Below are positions 332-25,700 of a stretch of DNA of 64,000 nucleotides, piece by piece. Positions within the stretch are counted from its first letter, which is position 1, and the number at the start of each line of letters is the position of its first letter. The notes under the pieces were generated by a model. The model had not been told where the DNA came from, searched no databases, and worked only from the letters and a program-made list of their open reading frames with translations. Both the position numbers and the translations under genes were made by a program. The DNA comes from a virus (Duplodnaviria; Caudoviricetes): positions 32,001 to 96,000 of IMG/VR virus record IMGVR_UViG_3300014039_000541. One strand, 5' to 3'.

Positions 332-1318
332 ATGGAAAATACATCAACGAATACAAGTAATAATACTCAACATGTAACGCAGAAATTGTTTACAGAAATG
401 TTGAGACCACAAACATTGGATCAAGCAATTATAGTTCCGAGAATTAGAGAGGTTCTTCAACACGGGTTGACAACTAATATTTTACTTTCCGGTTCCGCTG
501 GTGCTGGTAAAACTTCCCTAACTCGCATCTTAACTCGCGGATACCAAGTTCTTGAAATTAATGCATCTCTTGAAAATGGTATTGATACCATTAGAGATAA
601 AGTTATTGCATTTGCATCTCAGTCATCTCTTTTTGATGGTGAGGAAAAACTTAAGGTTGTTGTTCTTGAAGAGTGCGATGGTCTTTCTCTTGAAGCTTGG
701 AAAGCTCTTCGTGCAACAATTGAAAAATATCATAAAACTGTTAGGTTTATTGCAAACTGTAATTATATCGATAAGGTACCAGAACCTATTCAATCAAGAT
801 TTAATGTTATTATAATTGATCCACTTACAAAAGAAGAAGAAGATTATCTATTTAACGGTTATCTTGAGAGAATTAAATATATTCTTACAAAATTTAGAAT
901 TCAATTTACAGAAGAAACAGTAACATCATTTGTAAGAAGTTCATTCCCTGATATGCGTTCACTTCTTAATAAGATCCAAAATCTTTATACAAGAGGATTA
1001 AAAGAATTATCAGTTGATATGCTTGCATCTTCTTATGATTGTTCAGAGTTGTTTAAGCTTATAATTGATAAACCGGATCCTGTAAACAATTATAAGAAAC
1101 TTGTTGCAGATTGGTCAACACGCTCAGATGATGCAGTTCTTGCAATAGGTAAGGATTTTCCTGATTTCATATTGACAACATGTCCACAATATGGTTCAAA
1201 ACTTCCACTTATTCTTATAGCAACAGCAGAATATAATTCTATGCTTGCAACATCAATAGATAAGTTTGTGACATTGCTTGGACTTGTATTTAAATTGCAG
1301 TTAATTATACATCAATAA
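332..1318 (+). CDS. Sliding-clamp loader AAA+ subunit (T4 gp44 / RFC small subunit-like)
   Basis: LRPQTLD N-terminal motif, Walker A GSAGAGKT, EINAS, Walker B VVLEECD, ALRATIE, IQSRF, FPDMRSLLN. Confidence 0.92.
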   Translation: MENTSTNTSNNTQHVTQKLFTEMLRPQTLDQAIIVPRIREVLQHGLTTNILLSGSAGAGKTSLTRILTRGYQVLEINASLENGIDTIRDKVIAFASQSSLFDGEEKLKVVVLEECDGLSLEAWKALRATIEKYHKTVRFIANCNYIDKVPEPIQSRFNVIIIDPLTKEEEDYLFNGYLERIKYILTKFRIQFTEETVTSFVRSSFPDMRSLLNKIQNLYTRGLKELSVDMLASSYDCSELFKLIIDKPDPVNNYKKLVADWSTRSDDAVLAIGKDFPDFILTTCPQYGSKLPLILIATAEYNSMLATSIDKFVTLLGLVFKLQLIIHQ

Positions 1319-1708: not shown

Positions 1709-1888
1709 ATGAACGATATTTTGACAAGTATTAATGAGGCATTCGCTGGTTTCCAGGCAGATGCAACCGCTCAGGTAGAGAAGGGTAATAAGGCTGCAGG
1801 TCAGCGTGCACGTAAGGCATCTCTTGCAATTGAGAAGTTGCTTAAGACATTCCGTAAGGAGTCTATCGAGGCTGCTAAGACAAAGTGA
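1709..1888 (+). CDS. Histone H1-like protein, Hc1 family (59 aa; absent from the ORF track)
   Basis: Translates as MNDILTSINEAFAGFQADATAQVEKGNKAAGQRARKASLAIEKLLKTFRKESIEAAKTK; GNKAAGxRARKxSL is the Hc1/Bacteroidota histone-H1-like signature. Confidence 0.85.
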   Translation: MNDILTSINEAFAGFQADATAQVEKGNKAAGQRARKASLAIEKLLKTFRKESIEAAKTK

Positions 1889-1915
1889 TAATTAACATTG
1901 TTTAACTTAATAAAG

Positions 1916-1956
1916 AATTATCTTTACATTATTTAATTAGAAGTAAAGATAATTTT
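1916..1956 (+). terminator. Hairpin/terminator after the Hc1 gene
   Basis: Inverted repeat AATTATCTTTAC...GTAAAGATAATT followed by T residues. Confidence 0.5.
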
Positions 1957-1963
1957 ATTATAT

Positions 1964-2035
1964 GCATGATTAGCTAAGTGGTACAGCAGGAAACTTTAAA
2001 CTTCCAGATCACGGGTTCGATCCCTGTATCATGCA
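1964..2035 (+). tRNA. tRNA with UUA anticodon (ochre-suppressor type)
   Basis: Cloverleaf: acceptor GCATGAT/ATCATGC, D stem GCT/AGC with TGG in the loop, anticodon stem GGAAA/CTTCC (A31-C39 mismatch), loop CTTTAAA (anticodon TTA, 1996-1998), T arm ACGGG-TTCGATC-CCTGT, discriminator A, no encoded CCA. Confidence 0.85.
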
Positions 2036-2065
2036 CATCTAAATTTAAAATAAAAGTATAAAACT

Positions 2066-2110: not shown

Positions 2111-2182
2111 TTTTTGTATATTTTAATTTTATATATTAATCATAAAACTATTATTAAACAAAATTAAAACTATACAAAATTA
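2108..2182 (+). promoter_or_regulatory. Hairpin sequestering the initiation region of ORF 2182
   Basis: TAATTTTTGTATATTTTAATTTT (2108-2130) is the near-perfect reverse complement of AAAATTAAAACTATACAAAATTA (2160-2182); about 22 bp with one bulge per arm. Confidence 0.6.
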
Positions 2183-2565
2183 TGAAAACACAAAAAGAAA
2201 ATGTAATAAGATTTAAGAATTATCTTAAGAAAAGAATATCAGAAAGAAAACAACTTAAATTAATAGCGAACAAATCATCAAAAGATAAAGATTATAATTG
2301 GATTAAATCTAGTCATGCTAAATCAGAATTAGAAGAAACATTAGAAGATATACATGCACTGTATATTGCATATTATATTGTAAAACATGATTTAATTAGT
2401 CAAGAAAAAGAACTTGATTATATGATAGAATGTTCAAAAACATTTAAGAAACATTATACTGTATATACAACGAAACAATGTTTTTTATCACAATATGGAT
2501 ATGTAAACAAGAAAATAAATGAATATCTAAATAAGTTTGGTTATGAAAGTGAATTTATTAAGTAA
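2182..2565 (+). CDS. Hypothetical basic helical protein, first gene of the Pth2-like unit
   Basis: 127-aa ORF with HALYIAYYIVKH segment; overlaps the next gene. Confidence 0.75.
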   Translation: MKTQKENVIRFKNYLKKRISERKQLKLIANKSSKDKDYNWIKSSHAKSELEETLEDIHALYIAYYIVKHDLISQEKELDYMIECSKTFKKHYTVYTTKQCFLSQYGYVNKKINEYLNKFGYESEFIK

Positions 2566-2920
2566 ATTAAAAATATTTACTAATAAACATAAAGTTATTA
2601 ATTTTAAATTAGAAACAAATAATAAACTTTATATATTAGTAAGTAATCAATTGAATCCTATATATGGAGCAGTTCAAGGAGGTCATGCAATAGCACAGTT
2701 TTTAATTGAGCATCCTAATTCTGAATGGAAAAATAATACTGTTGTTTATCTTTCATGTGATATAGATAATTTTTTAAATAGACAAAAGAAACGTAATCAA
2801 TTATTAAAAGATGAATTACATAGTGTATTTAAGGAACCAGATTTAAATAATCAAATAACAGCAATAGCATGTTATAAGATACCTCAAAAATATGTAAAGA
2901 ATTTGAAGTTGTTGAGATAA
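2543..2920 (+). CDS. Peptidyl-tRNA hydrolase 2 (Pth2)-like protein
   Basis: KLYILV...YGAVQGGHAIAQF and FKEPDLNNQITAIA match the Pth2-family pattern (K..I.V...Q..HA; EPD...TA.A). ATG at 2543 overlaps the upstream gene. Confidence 0.72.
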   Translation: MKVNLLSKLKIFTNKHKVINFKLETNNKLYILVSNQLNPIYGAVQGGHAIAQFLIEHPNSEWKNNTVVYLSCDIDNFLNRQKKRNQLLKDELHSVFKEPDLNNQITAIACYKIPQKYVKNLKLLR

Positions 2921-2932
2921 TAAACAATATAT

Positions 2933-2974
2933 AGAGATAATAGATAAGTAAAAATATTCTATTATCTCTTTTTA
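2933..2974 (+). terminator. Intrinsic terminator
   Basis: AGAGATAATAGA...TCTATTATCTCT followed by a T run. Confidence 0.65.
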
Positions 2975-3019
2975 TTTAAATAGAAATAAATAATTAAACT
3001 ATTAATAGTATTTTTAATT

Positions 3020-4117
3020 ATGAAATTAGTTAACGAGAAAATAGGATATGTGGATGAAAAGCAGTTTAAACTTTCAACTGTAGTGAATGCGATGGTTGAA
3101 TTTTTAACATCTCCTGATATTCATTGGGATTCTAATTATGAAGTTAAAGGAAAGCCTAATGTAAAGGATATAGATGGATTTGGTTATCATACTTTTACAT
3201 TTGATTTAGATAATAATAAATTAGGATTTATAAAAATTATTATTGTTAATATAGACAAAGATAAAGTAAAGTCTACATATAAATTCCAAGGATTTTTAGA
3301 CGATGAAGAAACAGCTTTTTATTCACCTGTTGATTCTACTGTAGATAAGAAGAAAAATAATTGTGGATATATCTATATTAATTATGATATATTTAAAGAA
3401 TATATTTCAGATAAACAGAAATTAACAGATGAATTAAAGGAATATACATATCATGAGTTAAGACATTATTATGATAATATAATGGGCGTATTCGGTGGAC
3501 CATTGAAAGAACTTATACATATTACATTGATAGCTGATGAATTTGATATTAATAAACAAACATTCAAGGAGAAGAATAAAGAAGCATTAACTAAACATGA
3601 TACAACATATAAGTCATTGCAGAATCTTCTTTATGTTTCACAACCAACTGAATTAAATGCTTGGTATCATTCATTCGTTCAACATATGATGGTATATCAG
3701 AAGAAGAATCCAAATGCAACAAAAGATGATATTATAAATTATATTACAAAACCTGAATTAAACGGTAATGATTATGCATGTTTCATTTACAGTTATGCTA
3801 TTGTATATAAGACATTCGGTAATTATGCTAAAGCTATAAACGGTTTGTGTTCACAAGATCCTGTTAAGTTGTATTATTATATAATTAATACATTGAATGA
3901 ATGTCAACCATCTGATAAGACTATTAAACAGATGAATGATTTATTTGAGAAGAATTATATTGATTATTTCACAGATACTGTTGATTATAAAACATTCGGT
4001 ATAAAGTTAAGTGCATTCATTAATGATTATTACATGCATTATGTGTATAAGAAAATTGCGCCTAAGTATTTACATACATATAAGAATATGCAGAAGTTTA
4101 TTTCTACACTTGTTTAA
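3020..4117 (+). CDS. Hypothetical protein with HExxH motif (possible zincin metallopeptidase)
   Basis: YHELRHYYD plus downstream PTELNAW; N-terminus MKLVNE. Confidence 0.6.
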   Translation: MKLVNEKIGYVDEKQFKLSTVVNAMVEFLTSPDIHWDSNYEVKGKPNVKDIDGFGYHTFTFDLDNNKLGFIKIIIVNIDKDKVKSTYKFQGFLDDEETAFYSPVDSTVDKKKNNCGYIYINYDIFKEYISDKQKLTDELKEYTYHELRHYYDNIMGVFGGPLKELIHITLIADEFDINKQTFKEKNKEALTKHDTTYKSLQNLLYVSQPTELNAWYHSFVQHMMVYQKKNPNATKDDIINYITKPELNGNDYACFIYSYAIVYKTFGNYAKAINGLCSQDPVKLYYYIINTLNECQPSDKTIKQMNDLFEKNYIDYFTDTVDYKTFGIKLSAFINDYYMHYVYKKIAPKYLHTYKNMQKFISTLV

Positions 4118-4138: not shown

Positions 4139-4849
4139 ATGAAAGCAAAAGATATAGCAAGTTAGTTAGGAAGTTTGGCAGCTGCAGCTTCGTCACAACC
4201 AGGAAATTACGATGCTAATGATATAGATACAGATATTCCTGACGAACTTCAAGAGCCGGATCCGATATTCGTTGTTGAGCATGAAGAGGTAATGTCTACA
4301 GATACAGCAAAAGCATTAAAATCCGTTAAGTAGATTGTTAATACCATTGTACCTGAAGCATATCAAAATAACCCTATTATAAAAGATAAAATATTACAGG
4401 ATGCAGATTAGTTAGGACAACTTTATTATCAATAGAGTATGAACAATGTTATGATAAAGGTAATTATGGATACTATATCTAAAGGAGATACATCCGCAAA
4501 ATTATTTGATTCATATACAAAGTTAATGTCTATCGCGAAGGATTTCAATAAGTAGATTAATGAGATGCAGAATCAATTCAGAAAATATTATATTGATACT
4601 TATCTTGATCTTCAACATAAGGAAGATGAAGATCTTATTGCAGAAGATAATGGAGTTAATAGGAAAGCTGTAACGACTTCAAAAGAAGAGCCATAGCAAG
4701 TTACATATGAAGAAGTAAAAGAGTCTCATACAGGAGACAATATGGACTTACGAGAGACTTCTACACGTGATACAACAATAAAGGTATAGGATTGGAAAAA
4801 AGAAATATATAAAAAGAGATTTGAAGAAAGTAAAAAAGCAGAAGAATAA
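4139..4849 (+). CDS. TAG-recoded protein, possibly terminase small subunit (T4 gp16-like)
   Basis: Open under code 15 from ATG 4139 to TAA 4847-4849 (236 aa). Segment DTISKGDTSAKLFDSYTKLMSIAKDFNKQINEM loosely resembles the gp16 helical core; function is tentative. Confidence 0.5.
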
Positions 4850-22705: not shown

Positions 22706-25700
22706 AATTTAATGGATACAAATATTTGTTTATGCTATTTAATTGTATATTTGATAAATCATTACTATTACTATAAAAACCAATATCTTTTGGTGTTAAT
22801 TTATACTATCCTTCTTTTACAATAGATGGACGTCTTAACATTAAAACAACATTATATTGCTCTTCATCATTAAACATCATACGAGGATATATATTATAAC
22901 ATAAATTATATGGCATTTTATCAACATTATTTTTGCCATTAATAACTGATGCAAAATCAAAATCCAATTGTTTAATATATTGTTTATTCTATACAGGATA
23001 TTTTGTATTATTAGTATTATCTTTTTCGTTACCATTATTTGTGGTATAATAAGGATAGCACCAAGATAATTGATATAATAATGATCTAAATAATAATGAT
23101 GGTGTATAAGAATCTGTTTTATCAGGTTTATTTACATTATATGTTTTGACTTTGTTTTTACCTAAATCAAAAAACTATAATTCATTCTATGTTTTTACAT
23201 CGTTTAATGATAATATATCATTTAATGAATACTAACCATTATCTGATGTTTTCGGTAAATATTGATAACCATTACCATATGTTTCAAAATGTCCGTTAAA
23301 TGGATTATCTGTATCATAATGATAATCTTTTTCATATATATTATTCCATTTCATCATGGATTTCAGTAATTGTTCCGAACGTAATTGTATATCATTATAT
23401 TGATGTACATATACAGCAGAATTATTACTTAATTGACTATACTGTGACGCCAATAACCTTTTATTATTAAATATAATACTATATTGATCGTTTATTAAAC
23501 GTGGTAATAATATATTGGAATTATATATAAATCTTAAATAATTTTCTGAAATATCATCTTTATCTTCACATAACCATTTTTTACTATACAATTTATCAGG
23601 GATTAAATTATATATATTATTTATGTTCTATGTAAATATTGACATCTTCTATATATTATCCTATAAATATCTACACTTAAATGCAATAGAATTCCAATTT
23701 GGTATTCTACCTATATTTTCTTTTGTTCTATTAATTGTTTTTCCCTAAGATATTTCATCATACTTATAAGGTAGAATAGCGATATTAGTAATATCAGAAT
23801 TTCCAAACCATTTTCTTAATCGTAAATCTTGTTGTAATATTCTATTAGATAATGTACTTTGCTATGCGTATGATGCAATATATGAAATAGGTGCAATAGA
23901 GCATTTTAATATATTAGATGTATATAAATAAGACTTATTTACATTTGTATTTTCTAATGGTAATATATGTTCATCAGAAACTATTTCAATTTTATCAATA
24001 TATTCCTATAACGTAAATGAATACGGTTCAGGATTTTCAGATTCCATGTAAAATCTCAAATGCCATATTCCAGAATTAGCTTCATCTATAGTAAACTCAT
24101 AATAATCATTTATGATTTCTTTAATATTATTTTTATCTAATAAGTCTTTAGCAGATATATTGAAAATGTCTATACCTGGTTTTATTAAAGTAAATGATAT
24201 TTTATCTTTAGTCCATTTATATCCTGTTTCATTAGCTTCACTTATAGTAGATGAACCGTCTTTACTATCAATAAAATTATGATTCAAATATAAACGTATT
24301 TTTAGATTAGTGTAATATTTCTTATAAAATCCCCAATTATCATCATTAAAATTATCAATCTATATTGAAGTAAATGTTTGAAATTGATTACATAATATAC
24401 CATTATCATAATTATTAAGTCTCTCTAATGACTCCAAATCATTATATATATGTAACTTTATATCAGGAATAGTTCGTTTTTCTTGATAACCAGAGATAAT
24501 TCTATTATATGTTACAATATTACTATATACTACATTTTTTTGAGATTCACTTAAATCTGCTGTTTCATTATCAATAGTATTATATTTAAATGTGTATAAT
24601 ACTTGATTAATAGGAATTTCGATAACACTTGAATTATATAAATCTGTTAAAAATTTATTATCAGATATTTTATTAATAACATCTGTAGTTATATCCTATT
24701 TTGATGTAATAATACCAGTTATTTTATAAATGCTTGTATCATTATTTAACGTTATCTTGGTATCATTTATTAATGTATCATTTTCATATACACTGAAATT
24801 ACATACATATGTTAATTTATCTTTTAATTCAACATACATATTATTATCTTCAATATTTATGTTAAATATATCTGTATAATCATATGTTCTTGTTTTATTA
24901 ACAGCATTAATATTAACAAATGAAGAATTAATATCAAACTCAGATGTATAGTAATTAAAATCGGCTCTTGTAACATTACTAAAATATTTCATACCGGATT
25001 TATCACCTACAAATTGATATATTAAATGATGTCTATACCTCTATGAATTTAAATCTGATTTATCTAGCGATATTGTCATTACGGATGAATCATTATAATT
25101 ATATTGCTTATATTCATATCCTGAATAAAAACTTGTATCAAATAAATTAGAAAATTTATTTTCCTCTTTTGTTTTATCAACGGGACTATTATTATAATTA
25201 TATACTATTATATCATTATTTGCCGTATGATATTTTTTATAATAAAACTTTGTTTCCGGTAACTATACCTTATCATATGTTAAATATTGTTCAACATCTT
25301 CTGTTATTATAATACCTTTTATATTTGTATTAATACAATACTAGTTTAATAAATCTTTATTAACACTTGTATTTAATAATTTATTTGACACATCATTAAG
25401 AGTTTGATAATCATATGTATTAATTAATAATTGTTTTATATTTGTATCTTTAATTTCTTTATAATATAAATTATCATAATTTCTTATATAGTTACCTGTA
25501 AGGTCTAATGATGGCATTTTAAGTGTTGAAGGATTTTCATCTACAAAAGTACCTCTTATATAATTAGGACCATATTGGTAATGTACACTTGAATCTAAAT
25601 TATTCATATCATTATAATTCCAATACATATGTGTATATCCATATACATAATTTTCTTTAGATACATCTATATTATTAAAGAAATCATCTACATTCATTAT

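Follow-up and report, generated by a model that had tools for sequence, protein, structure and literature searches.

The window analysed here is a 64,000-nt stretch of viral DNA that comprises bases 32001-96000 of a 107,373-bp contig with 25.8% G+C. Near its start, a tRNA gene lies between hc1, which encodes an Hc1 histone-H1-like protein, and three TAG-free ORFs (Table 1). ARAGORN called this gene at 1964-2036(+) as the sole tRNA in the 64-kb window and typed it as tRNA-Stop with the anticodon tta. The Rfam model RF00005 matched 1964-2035(+) over the full model (positions 1-71 of 71) with a score of 59.5 bits (gathering score 29; E = 2.4e-10), and this was the only gathering-level Rfam match within the window. 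The gene is a genuine tRNA with the anticodon UUA and is referred to below as tRNA(UUA). A preliminary description of the locus had placed TTA at positions 34-36 of a loop with the sequence CTTTAAA; this placement was exact to the base.

Table 1 Features at and around the tRNA(UUA) gene. Positions are those of the window except where the contig is named.
Feature	Position	Strand	Remarks
AAA-type ATPase gene, TAG-free	332..1318	+	Pfam PF00004, E 5e-09; upstream of the tRNA
hc1, Hc1 histone-H1-like protein, 59 aa, TAG-free	1709..1891	+	PF07432, E 2e-22; ends TGA TAA
AU-rich hairpin	1914..1956	+	14-bp stem, 15-nt loop, then U-run; between hc1 stop and tRNA
tRNA(UUA), ochre-type suppressor	1964..2035	+	72 nt to discriminator A73 (2035); ARAGORN, Rfam, synteny, compensatory pairs
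A31.C39	1993 and 2001	+	Non-Watson-Crick position that closes the anticodon stem, conserved; unpaired in 4/4 alleles
Anticodon TTA, positions 34-36	1996..1998	+	Within the 7-nt loop CTTTAAA, 1994-2000; invariant
Three ORFs, TAG-free	2182..4117	+	No Pfam match; downstream of the tRNA; ORF list under TAG=Q
CUA suppressor tRNA	contig 101731-101803	+	5.7 kb past window end; ARAGORN and RF00005

The acceptor stem of tRNA(UUA), GCATGAT/ATCATGC, begins with the pairs G1-C72 and C2-G71. The CCA end is not encoded, the C at 2036 directly after A73 being its only encoded base. According to the sequence and the ARAGORN drawing, the D stem has three pairs, the variable loop has five bases and the T arm is normal. 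In the anticodon stem, GGAA(A)/(C)TTCC, A31 faces C39 and closes a loop composed of C32, U33, U34, U35, A36, A37 and A38. The thermodynamic fold accordingly has an anticodon stem of 4 bp and a loop of 9 nt.

Several features of the neighbourhood were characterized. Homologues of Hc1 with 45-73% identity occur in Bacteroidales. The AU-rich hairpin between hc1 and the tRNA folds with -12.8 kcal/mol (z = -2.58) and its Lak-C1 counterpart with -12.0 kcal/mol (z = -2.63), and the stem changes between the window and Lak-C1 keep the pairing; on these folding predictions, it is probably a terminator or a processing structure. A simple terminator scan, which needs three G-C pairs, called no terminator, the AU-rich hairpin included, and promoter-like sites were found at the shuffle level (10 vs 8.3). 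Downstream, the TAG-rich genes start at 4139. The whole 3' flank of the tRNA, together with a mini-ORF encoding MELQHW (2067-2087), is not conserved in Lak-C1, which argues against the earlier suggestion that the tRNA regulates an adjacent leader. No HDV-like ribozyme was matched at E up to 10 within 1850-2250, that is, to ~215 nt downstream of the tRNA, with the HDV-like models of Rfam 15, among which a theta-specific model may not be included. In Lak-C1, the corresponding tRNA(UUA) is solitary and stands apart from the tRNA clusters.

The contig DNA was ~81% identical to that of three 540-kb Prevotella megaphages, Lak-C1, Lak-A1 and Lak-A2. Once TAG was read through, the longest contig ORF grew from 465 to 2451 aa and the summed ORF length nearly doubled; recoding of TGA gave no such ORF gain on the contig. 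Under TAG=Q alone, the coding fraction of the contig was 91%. The contig is a fragment, ~107 kb long, from the genome of a Lak-type Prevotella megaphage in which TAG serves as a sense codon. Its label as a 'provirus' was rejected, since the contig is without any host-like flank or host-like DNA. The contig is collinear with Lak-C1 from 24.9 to 107 kb (Lak-C1 ~266.5 down to 179 kb), and its part from 1 to 24.9 kb matches Lak-C1 at ~501-526 kb. The break in synteny falls in a 595-nt non-coding gap (contig 24717-25311) upstream of the window; as judged by the alignment, it may represent a rearrangement, a ~234-kb deletion or a chimeric assembly join.

The tRNA in related Lak phages

The end of hc1, the hairpin and the tRNA align in synteny with Lak-C1, Lak-A1 and Lak-A2, which indicates orthology, and ARAGORN gave the syntenic tRNA the type (tta) in all three phages. 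Positions 6-66 of the tRNA were 96.7-98.4% identical to those of Lak-C1, A1 and A2, and the surrounding DNA was ~81% identical. Further related loci were collected by pattern scans in which the anticodon loop and positions 31 and 39 were left free, yielding 13 loci together with three GenBank loci. One of the 13 (L063) was a chance pattern match without a tRNA and was left out, and two of the 12 retained loci, L036 and L060, whose contigs are equally long, probably represent a single contig entered under two names. The anticodon was TTA in 12 of 12 related loci, and none of these relatives carried TTT, TTG or CTA, the anticodons that the preliminary description had named as signs of a sequence error or recent decay. 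The A31-C39 mismatch, also pointed out there, is real and was found in every allele. Three scans of viral contigs and one metagenome scan for wider homologues recovered close Lak relatives only; with the loosest pattern, 22 of 23 new matches had no tRNA.

With the window included, four distinct alleles of tRNA(UUA) were available, which leaves small power for covariation. Between the window and the other alleles, the acceptor pairs 3-70, 4-69 and 5-68 have changed on both sides with pairing kept (A-U/U-A/G-C vs U-A/C-G/U-A), and the acceptor stem remains 100% paired despite these three compensatory changes. Over the alleles, 95% of the helix cells were paired, with 31.39 as the sole exception, versus 27-56% in slid controls. 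Additionally, two 50-nt metagenome contig pieces covering 1980-2029, from two runs of one further study, showed 0 differences from the window. Contigs from four DNA runs of this study span the tRNA stretch with many differences in the flanks; among the 40 listed differences (44 more exist), none lies within 1929-2038. No RNA run containing the locus was listed. Judged by these sequence patterns, tRNA(UUA) is under purifying selection and looks like a functional gene.

Use of TAG and TAA in the phage genes

The contig's own TAG codons were compared with Lak-C1 at 247 frame-validated sites, where Lak-C1 has TAG in 130 cases, Gln in 70, Lys in 13 and Glu in 8. An admixture of Lys at TAG sites was not detectable, Lys making up 13 of the 47 non-Gln partners there versus 15 of 64 at Gln codons (p = 0.66). 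In the TAG-containing genes of Lak-C1, 1282 of 3318 Gln-type codons are TAG. By these codon comparisons, UAG decoding is a heavy, essential load for the phage, and it looks like decoding as Gln.

Exactly two tRNAs were found on the contig by ARAGORN and RF00005, namely the UUA and the CUA suppressors. The preliminary description had implied that a CUA suppressor was lacking and has to be corrected here, since one is present on the same contig. This CUA tRNA has U1-A72, G2-C71, G3-C70 and A73, which is the pattern of the phage tRNA-Gln(CUG) and tRNA-Gln(UUG) and of host tRNA-Gln. In Lak-C1, a further CUA tRNA, which differs from the first, lies ~0.9 kb away from it; neither ARAGORN nor RF00005 found one at the matching place of the contig.

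Lak-C1 also encodes RF2 (TIGR00020, 404 bits vs a cut-off of 370) in an uninterrupted and TAG-free ORF; RF2 was not found on the contig fragment. The Lak-C1 gene (MK250029, L169:823-1959, at ~332.8-333.9 kb) lacks the +1 frameshift that is usual in prfB. Its product has GGQ and reads SPY, where RF2 usually has SPF.

Among contig ORFs of at least 70 aa under TAG=Q, 90 of 98 end in TAA and 8 in TGA, which bears out the earlier statement that nearly all genes end in TAA. The TAA/TGA ends numbered 38/3 in TAG-containing and 52/5 in TAG-free ORFs of the contig. In the complete Lak-C1 genome, 487 of 551 genes end in TAA and 64 in TGA, and the choice of stop was equal in both gene classes, with TGA in 25 of 217 TAG-containing versus 39 of 334 TAG-free genes. 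When the contig's own stop codons were aligned to Lak-C1 (n = 56), TAA faced TAA in 45 cases and TGA in one, and TGA faced TGA in three cases and TAA in one. The other six were TAA codons facing sense codons at shifted gene ends, and TAG occurred in none of the 56.

Moreover, contig genes were aligned codon by codon with Lak-C1, and no genuine in-frame TAA was found in the 22,236 aligned in-frame codons. TAA or TGA was faced by 51 of these codons, 50 of them without amino-acid identity on both sides. Nearly all of these 50 apparent cases were alignment frame slips, and two of them, codons 161-162 of the gene at contig 99891-100385, lay close to its end and reflected a small shift of the stop. 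A looser filter yielded two TAA candidates, which were rejected as gap-placement artefacts after direct translation of Lak-C1. CAA was exchanged for TAG, which takes two changes, 35 times; the exchange of CAA for TAA, which takes one change, appeared in 1 of 436 cases and was itself an artefact. A code in which TAA is recoded as a sense codon, with UAR standing for an amino acid, was rejected, as the conserved genes contain no in-frame TAA. TAA is strongly excluded from the reading frames and is a real stop.

The sole real case among the 51 codons was an in-frame TGA in the Lak-C1 orthologue of the contig gene at 100946-101707(+). This gene, directly upstream of the CUA tRNA, encodes 253 aa with 8 in-frame TAG codons and is GIY-YIG-like by eye only. 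The Lak-C1 TGA faces TTA in the contig, with 68% and 76% amino-acid identity on its two sides, and could represent a pseudogene, an error or TGA read-through.

Isotype and the 31.39 position

The body of tRNA(UUA) was compared with phage, host and E. coli tRNAs. Among the 29 distinct intron-less tRNAs typed in Lak-C1 (from 32 RF00005 matches), its nearest paralogues were the Gln-like CUA suppressor and tRNA-Gln(CUG), with 50 of 73 positions identical. Host tRNAs were represented by a Prevotellamassilia isolate (42 distinct tRNAs) and a Prevotella MAG (16); the best identities to these, 51-52 of 73, were distributed among Leu, Thr, Met, Gly and Lys. No close relative of the body was found among E. 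coli tRNAs. Specifically, tRNA(UUA) shares 47 and 44 of 73 positions with the two tRNA-Lys of Lak-C1 and 49-50 of 73 with host tRNA-Lys, an identity no higher than that to Thr, Met or Gly. Weak neighbours among phage records were a mixture of Lys, Asn, Thr, Sup-CTA and Undet, and the weak annotated neighbours in blastn were mostly tRNA-Lys (E 9e-5 to 7), a resemblance that is inflated because the loops are alike and because many of the mycobacteriophage records are near-identical. On these identities, the body appears to match no sampled phage or host isotype. One Lak-C1 tRNA (MK250029, 175036-175107) is typed Lys(ttt) and has the odd loop TATTTAA, with A at position 33.

The acceptor end was compared with that of tRNA-Gln, represented by three host genes (G001), nine more Bacteroidales genes and the Lak tRNAs Gln(CUG), Gln(UUG) and Gln-like CUA. 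All of these have U1-A72 and G2-C71, versus G1-C72 and C2-G71 in tRNA(UUA). The preliminary description had called the body non-Gln on account of G1-C72 and A73. The first of these stands; A73 does not discriminate, since it is shared by tRNA(UUA), by host and phage tRNA-Gln and also by Lys, Leu, Tyr and Glu. The local tRNA-Gln pattern is thus excluded by the acceptor end. Lys would suit a tRNA that combines G1-C72, A73 and U35; in bacteria, a suppressor tRNA whose body is foreign tends to receive Gln or Lys.

A non-Watson-Crick 31.39 position was present in only 5 of 82 typed tRNAs: two UUA tRNAs, one Lak-C1 tRNA-Met, and the host tRNA-Gln(CUG) (A.C) and tRNA-Gln(UUG) (U.U). Among 12 tRNA-Gln genes from six Bacteroidales genomes, 31.39 was A.C in four, U.U in four and A-U in four, so that 8 of 12 were non-Watson-Crick. 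No true mismatch at 31.39 was found in the other sampled host isotypes, and the phage Gln-type tRNAs are Watson-Crick there. The mismatch had been taken as a possible sign of a deliberately weak suppressor. It need not mean this, because most Bacteroidales tRNA-Gln genes sampled are non-Watson-Crick at the same position; as a hint, A31.C39 may be a trait of a Gln-type arm rather than a deliberate weakening.

Candidate roles and related systems

tRNA(UUA) is already known and represents the rediscovery of a published, clade-wide feature of the Lak megaphages. In their passages on tRNAs, Crisci et al. (2021, iScience; PMC8346664) report that Lak phages encode 24-56 tRNAs, that a predicted TAA-binding suppressor is present in 51 of 51 Lak genomes ('universally'), that one or two CTA suppressors are present in 38 of 51, and that there is no evidence of TAA recoding in Lak. 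The corresponding passages of Devoto et al. (2019; PMC6784885) mention 'multiple types of suppressor tRNAs' and state that every complete Lak genome encodes RF2, and TAA suppressors are tabulated in a figure of the preprint by Borges et al. (10.1101/2021.08.26.457843). A literature search for 'TAA suppressor' and phage found no paper, and the passages on suppressor tRNAs in these three sources contained no proposed function for the Lak TAA suppressor. At the level of sequence, our analysis narrows the function: it points away from TAA recoding and from an adaptation to read-through, and towards a tRNA with a non-Gln body and an anticodon arm like that of host tRNA-Gln.

Tentatively, we favour the reading that tRNA(UUA) is an auxiliary or ancestral UAG decoder that acts through U34-G wobble and is outcompeted by release factors at UAA, a possibility that we rate as somewhat less likely than not. 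The tRNA would be transcribed in the TAG-free region behind the hc1 hairpin and matured by host enzymes, with CCA addition and probably i6A37 on the A36-A37-A38 loop, and a host synthetase keyed on U35, most likely GlnRS or LysRS, would charge it. As classical ochre suppressors do, it would then read UAG by U34-G wobble, either together with the Gln-like CUA suppressor or as a substitute for it. At UAA, tRNA(UUA) would largely lose to host RF1 and RF2 and to phage RF2, because all of these recognise UAA, and TAA could therefore stay the phage stop codon. The heavy use of TAG as a Gln-like codon, the strict use of TAA as a stop, the RF2 of Lak-C1 and the A31.C39 arm, which recalls Bacteroidales tRNA-Gln, speak for this reading. 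With its published presence in 51 of 51 genomes, versus 38 of 51 for CTA suppressors, the UUA tRNA is the sole candidate for UAG decoding that all of them share, and in the Lak genomes reported without a CTA suppressor (a quarter) it would be the only phage-borne UAG decoder.

Several points weigh against a UAG decoder. The acceptor stem is of a non-Gln type, the body as a whole fits no sampled isotype, and the CUA suppressors of the contig and of Lak-C1 could suffice alone. In addition, wobble reading of UAG is not automatic, because an exogenous tRNA(UUA) in E. coli, in the relevant results of PMC3592851, read UAG barely above background and read UAA ~5x less well than the CUA tRNA read UAG. 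Megaphage G carries a tRNA listed as Sup:UUA in the pertinent part of PMC12484599, and, since this phage is not known to recode TAG, the role of such tRNAs may be unrelated to recoding.

The evidence can also be joined in a more specific form of the UAG-decoder reading, which we regard as quite unlikely in its entirety. Here, the UUA tRNA rather than the CUA suppressor would be the decoder of UAG that is ancestral in Lak phages and that they cannot do without, and it would be glutaminylated, in spite of its non-Gln acceptor stem, by virtue of an A31.C39 arm that copies host tRNA-Gln(CUG). This arm, together with phage RF2 and both release factors of the host, would let it read UAR in one direction only, with effect at UAG and without harm at UAA. 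An indispensable UUA decoder would explain why this tRNA is present in all 51 genomes and the CUA suppressor in 38.

Read-through of UAA might itself be the function, either as a low-level or timed extension of phage proteins or as a disturbance of host termination. We consider this unlikely. It accords with an anticodon cognate to UAA and with the canonical loop C32-U33-UUA-A37-A38, since a C32-U33...A37-A38 context suits the reading of U-starting codons. Moreover, T follows TAA in 258 of 487 Lak-C1 genes versus 186 of 487 in each control frame, which fits selection for strong termination; such a T-after-TAA context is common in bacteria generally. However, the orthologues contain no in-frame TAA, the share of TGA stops is the same in TAG-containing and TAG-free genes, and the phage's own genes, ~88-92% of which end in TAA, would suffer most. 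Fusion of same-frame neighbours by read-through was rejected, as the fusable frame class was not enriched (13, 12 and 15 short same-strand spacers over the three frame classes). A backup stop in frame and no more than three codons away was present in 30 of 89 cases on the contig, versus 30 and 17 in the control frames. In Lak-C1, an in-frame tandem stop at +1 was in excess (69 of 487 vs 42 and 53; OR 1.53, p = 0.014), but the preference for T after TAA accounts for all of this excess, which was gone once conditioned on T at +4 (OR 1.06, p = 0.78). An adaptation through backup stops was rejected after this conditioning.

A role outside decoding, as a decoy or competitor for an anticodon nuclease or a tRNA-targeting defence, or as a regulatory or priming RNA, seems very doubtful to us. 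The solitary position of the gene away from the phage tRNA clusters, its orphan body and the Sup:UUA tRNA of phage G would all suit such a role, as would the tRNA-Lys records that dominate its weak annotated neighbours, tRNA-Lys being a known nuclease target. Against this, a Pfam scan around the tRNA revealed no defence or nuclease context, and the Lys resemblance is weak and inflated as described above. Furthermore, the conserved cloverleaf, the acceptor compensation and the canonical loop fit a translating tRNA better.

That the gene is a functionless copy of a sense tRNA (Lys UUU or Gln UUG), decaying or in error, is almost certainly wrong, because, although a single base (position 36) parts UUA from UUU, UUG and UUC, TTA is kept in all 12 loci over lineages ~19% apart in flanking DNA, the acceptor changes are compensatory, A31.C39 is invariant, the pieces over 1980-2029 from two runs of another study show no difference, the tRNA is reported in 51 of 51 Lak genomes in the passage cited above, and Lak-C1 has no parent paralogue.

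Lak megaphages rank with the largest phages known and serve as a model of stop-codon recoding, and all of them retain a tRNA cognate to the stop codon that they themselves use most. If tRNA(UUA) is the actual UAG decoder, the view of code switching in Lak phages would change. It would also show how a cell tolerates an ochre-type suppressor with UAA termination intact, which bears on suppressor-tRNA engineering. To the published feature, the present analysis adds that the acceptor stem evolved through compensatory changes and that A31.C39 is invariant and has a parallel in host tRNA-Gln, and it gives quantitative evidence against TAA recoding and against read-through adaptation.

Several known systems resemble this tRNA in part. 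In ciliate code 6, a pair of tRNA-Gln(UUA) and tRNA-Gln(CUA) reads UAR as Gln, and UUA and CUA suppressors likewise occur together in one genome. Unlike in ciliates, TAA is not a sense codon here but the stop of 88-92% of genes, and tRNA(UUA) is without a Gln-type acceptor. The E. coli ochre suppressors supB, supC and supG also have the anticodon UUA, are likewise expected to read UAA and, by wobble, UAG, and are tolerated as inefficient. These are mutant alleles of tRNA-Gln, tRNA-Tyr and tRNA-Lys, whereas tRNA(UUA) is a conserved wild-type gene without a recognisable parent isotype. Phage G, which is not known to be TAG-recoded, is another very large phage with a UUA suppressor; its host phylum differs, and the two tRNAs are likened by anticodon alone.

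The amber (CUA) suppressors of code-15 phages are likewise phage-borne suppressors in TAG-recoded genomes. The loop of the contig's CUA suppressor, C32-U33-N-U35-A36-A37-A38, is identical to that of tRNA(UUA) save for base 34. With U34 instead of C34, tRNA(UUA) is cognate to UAA, and its body is not Gln-like. Suppressors linked to theta ribozymes are 99.7% amber in the pertinent part of PMC10879173, and tRNA(UUA) has no detectable adjacent ribozyme, unlike many amber suppressors of recoded gut phages described there. The closest counterpart is the universal TTA suppressor of Lak itself, which is the same gene, in synteny, with a core identity of 96.7-98.4%, the same anticodon and no TAA recoding either. 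Relative to Lak-C1, A1 and A2, the lineage of the window differs by three compensated pairs in the acceptor stem on a contig that is ~19% diverged and appears rearranged with respect to Lak-C1.
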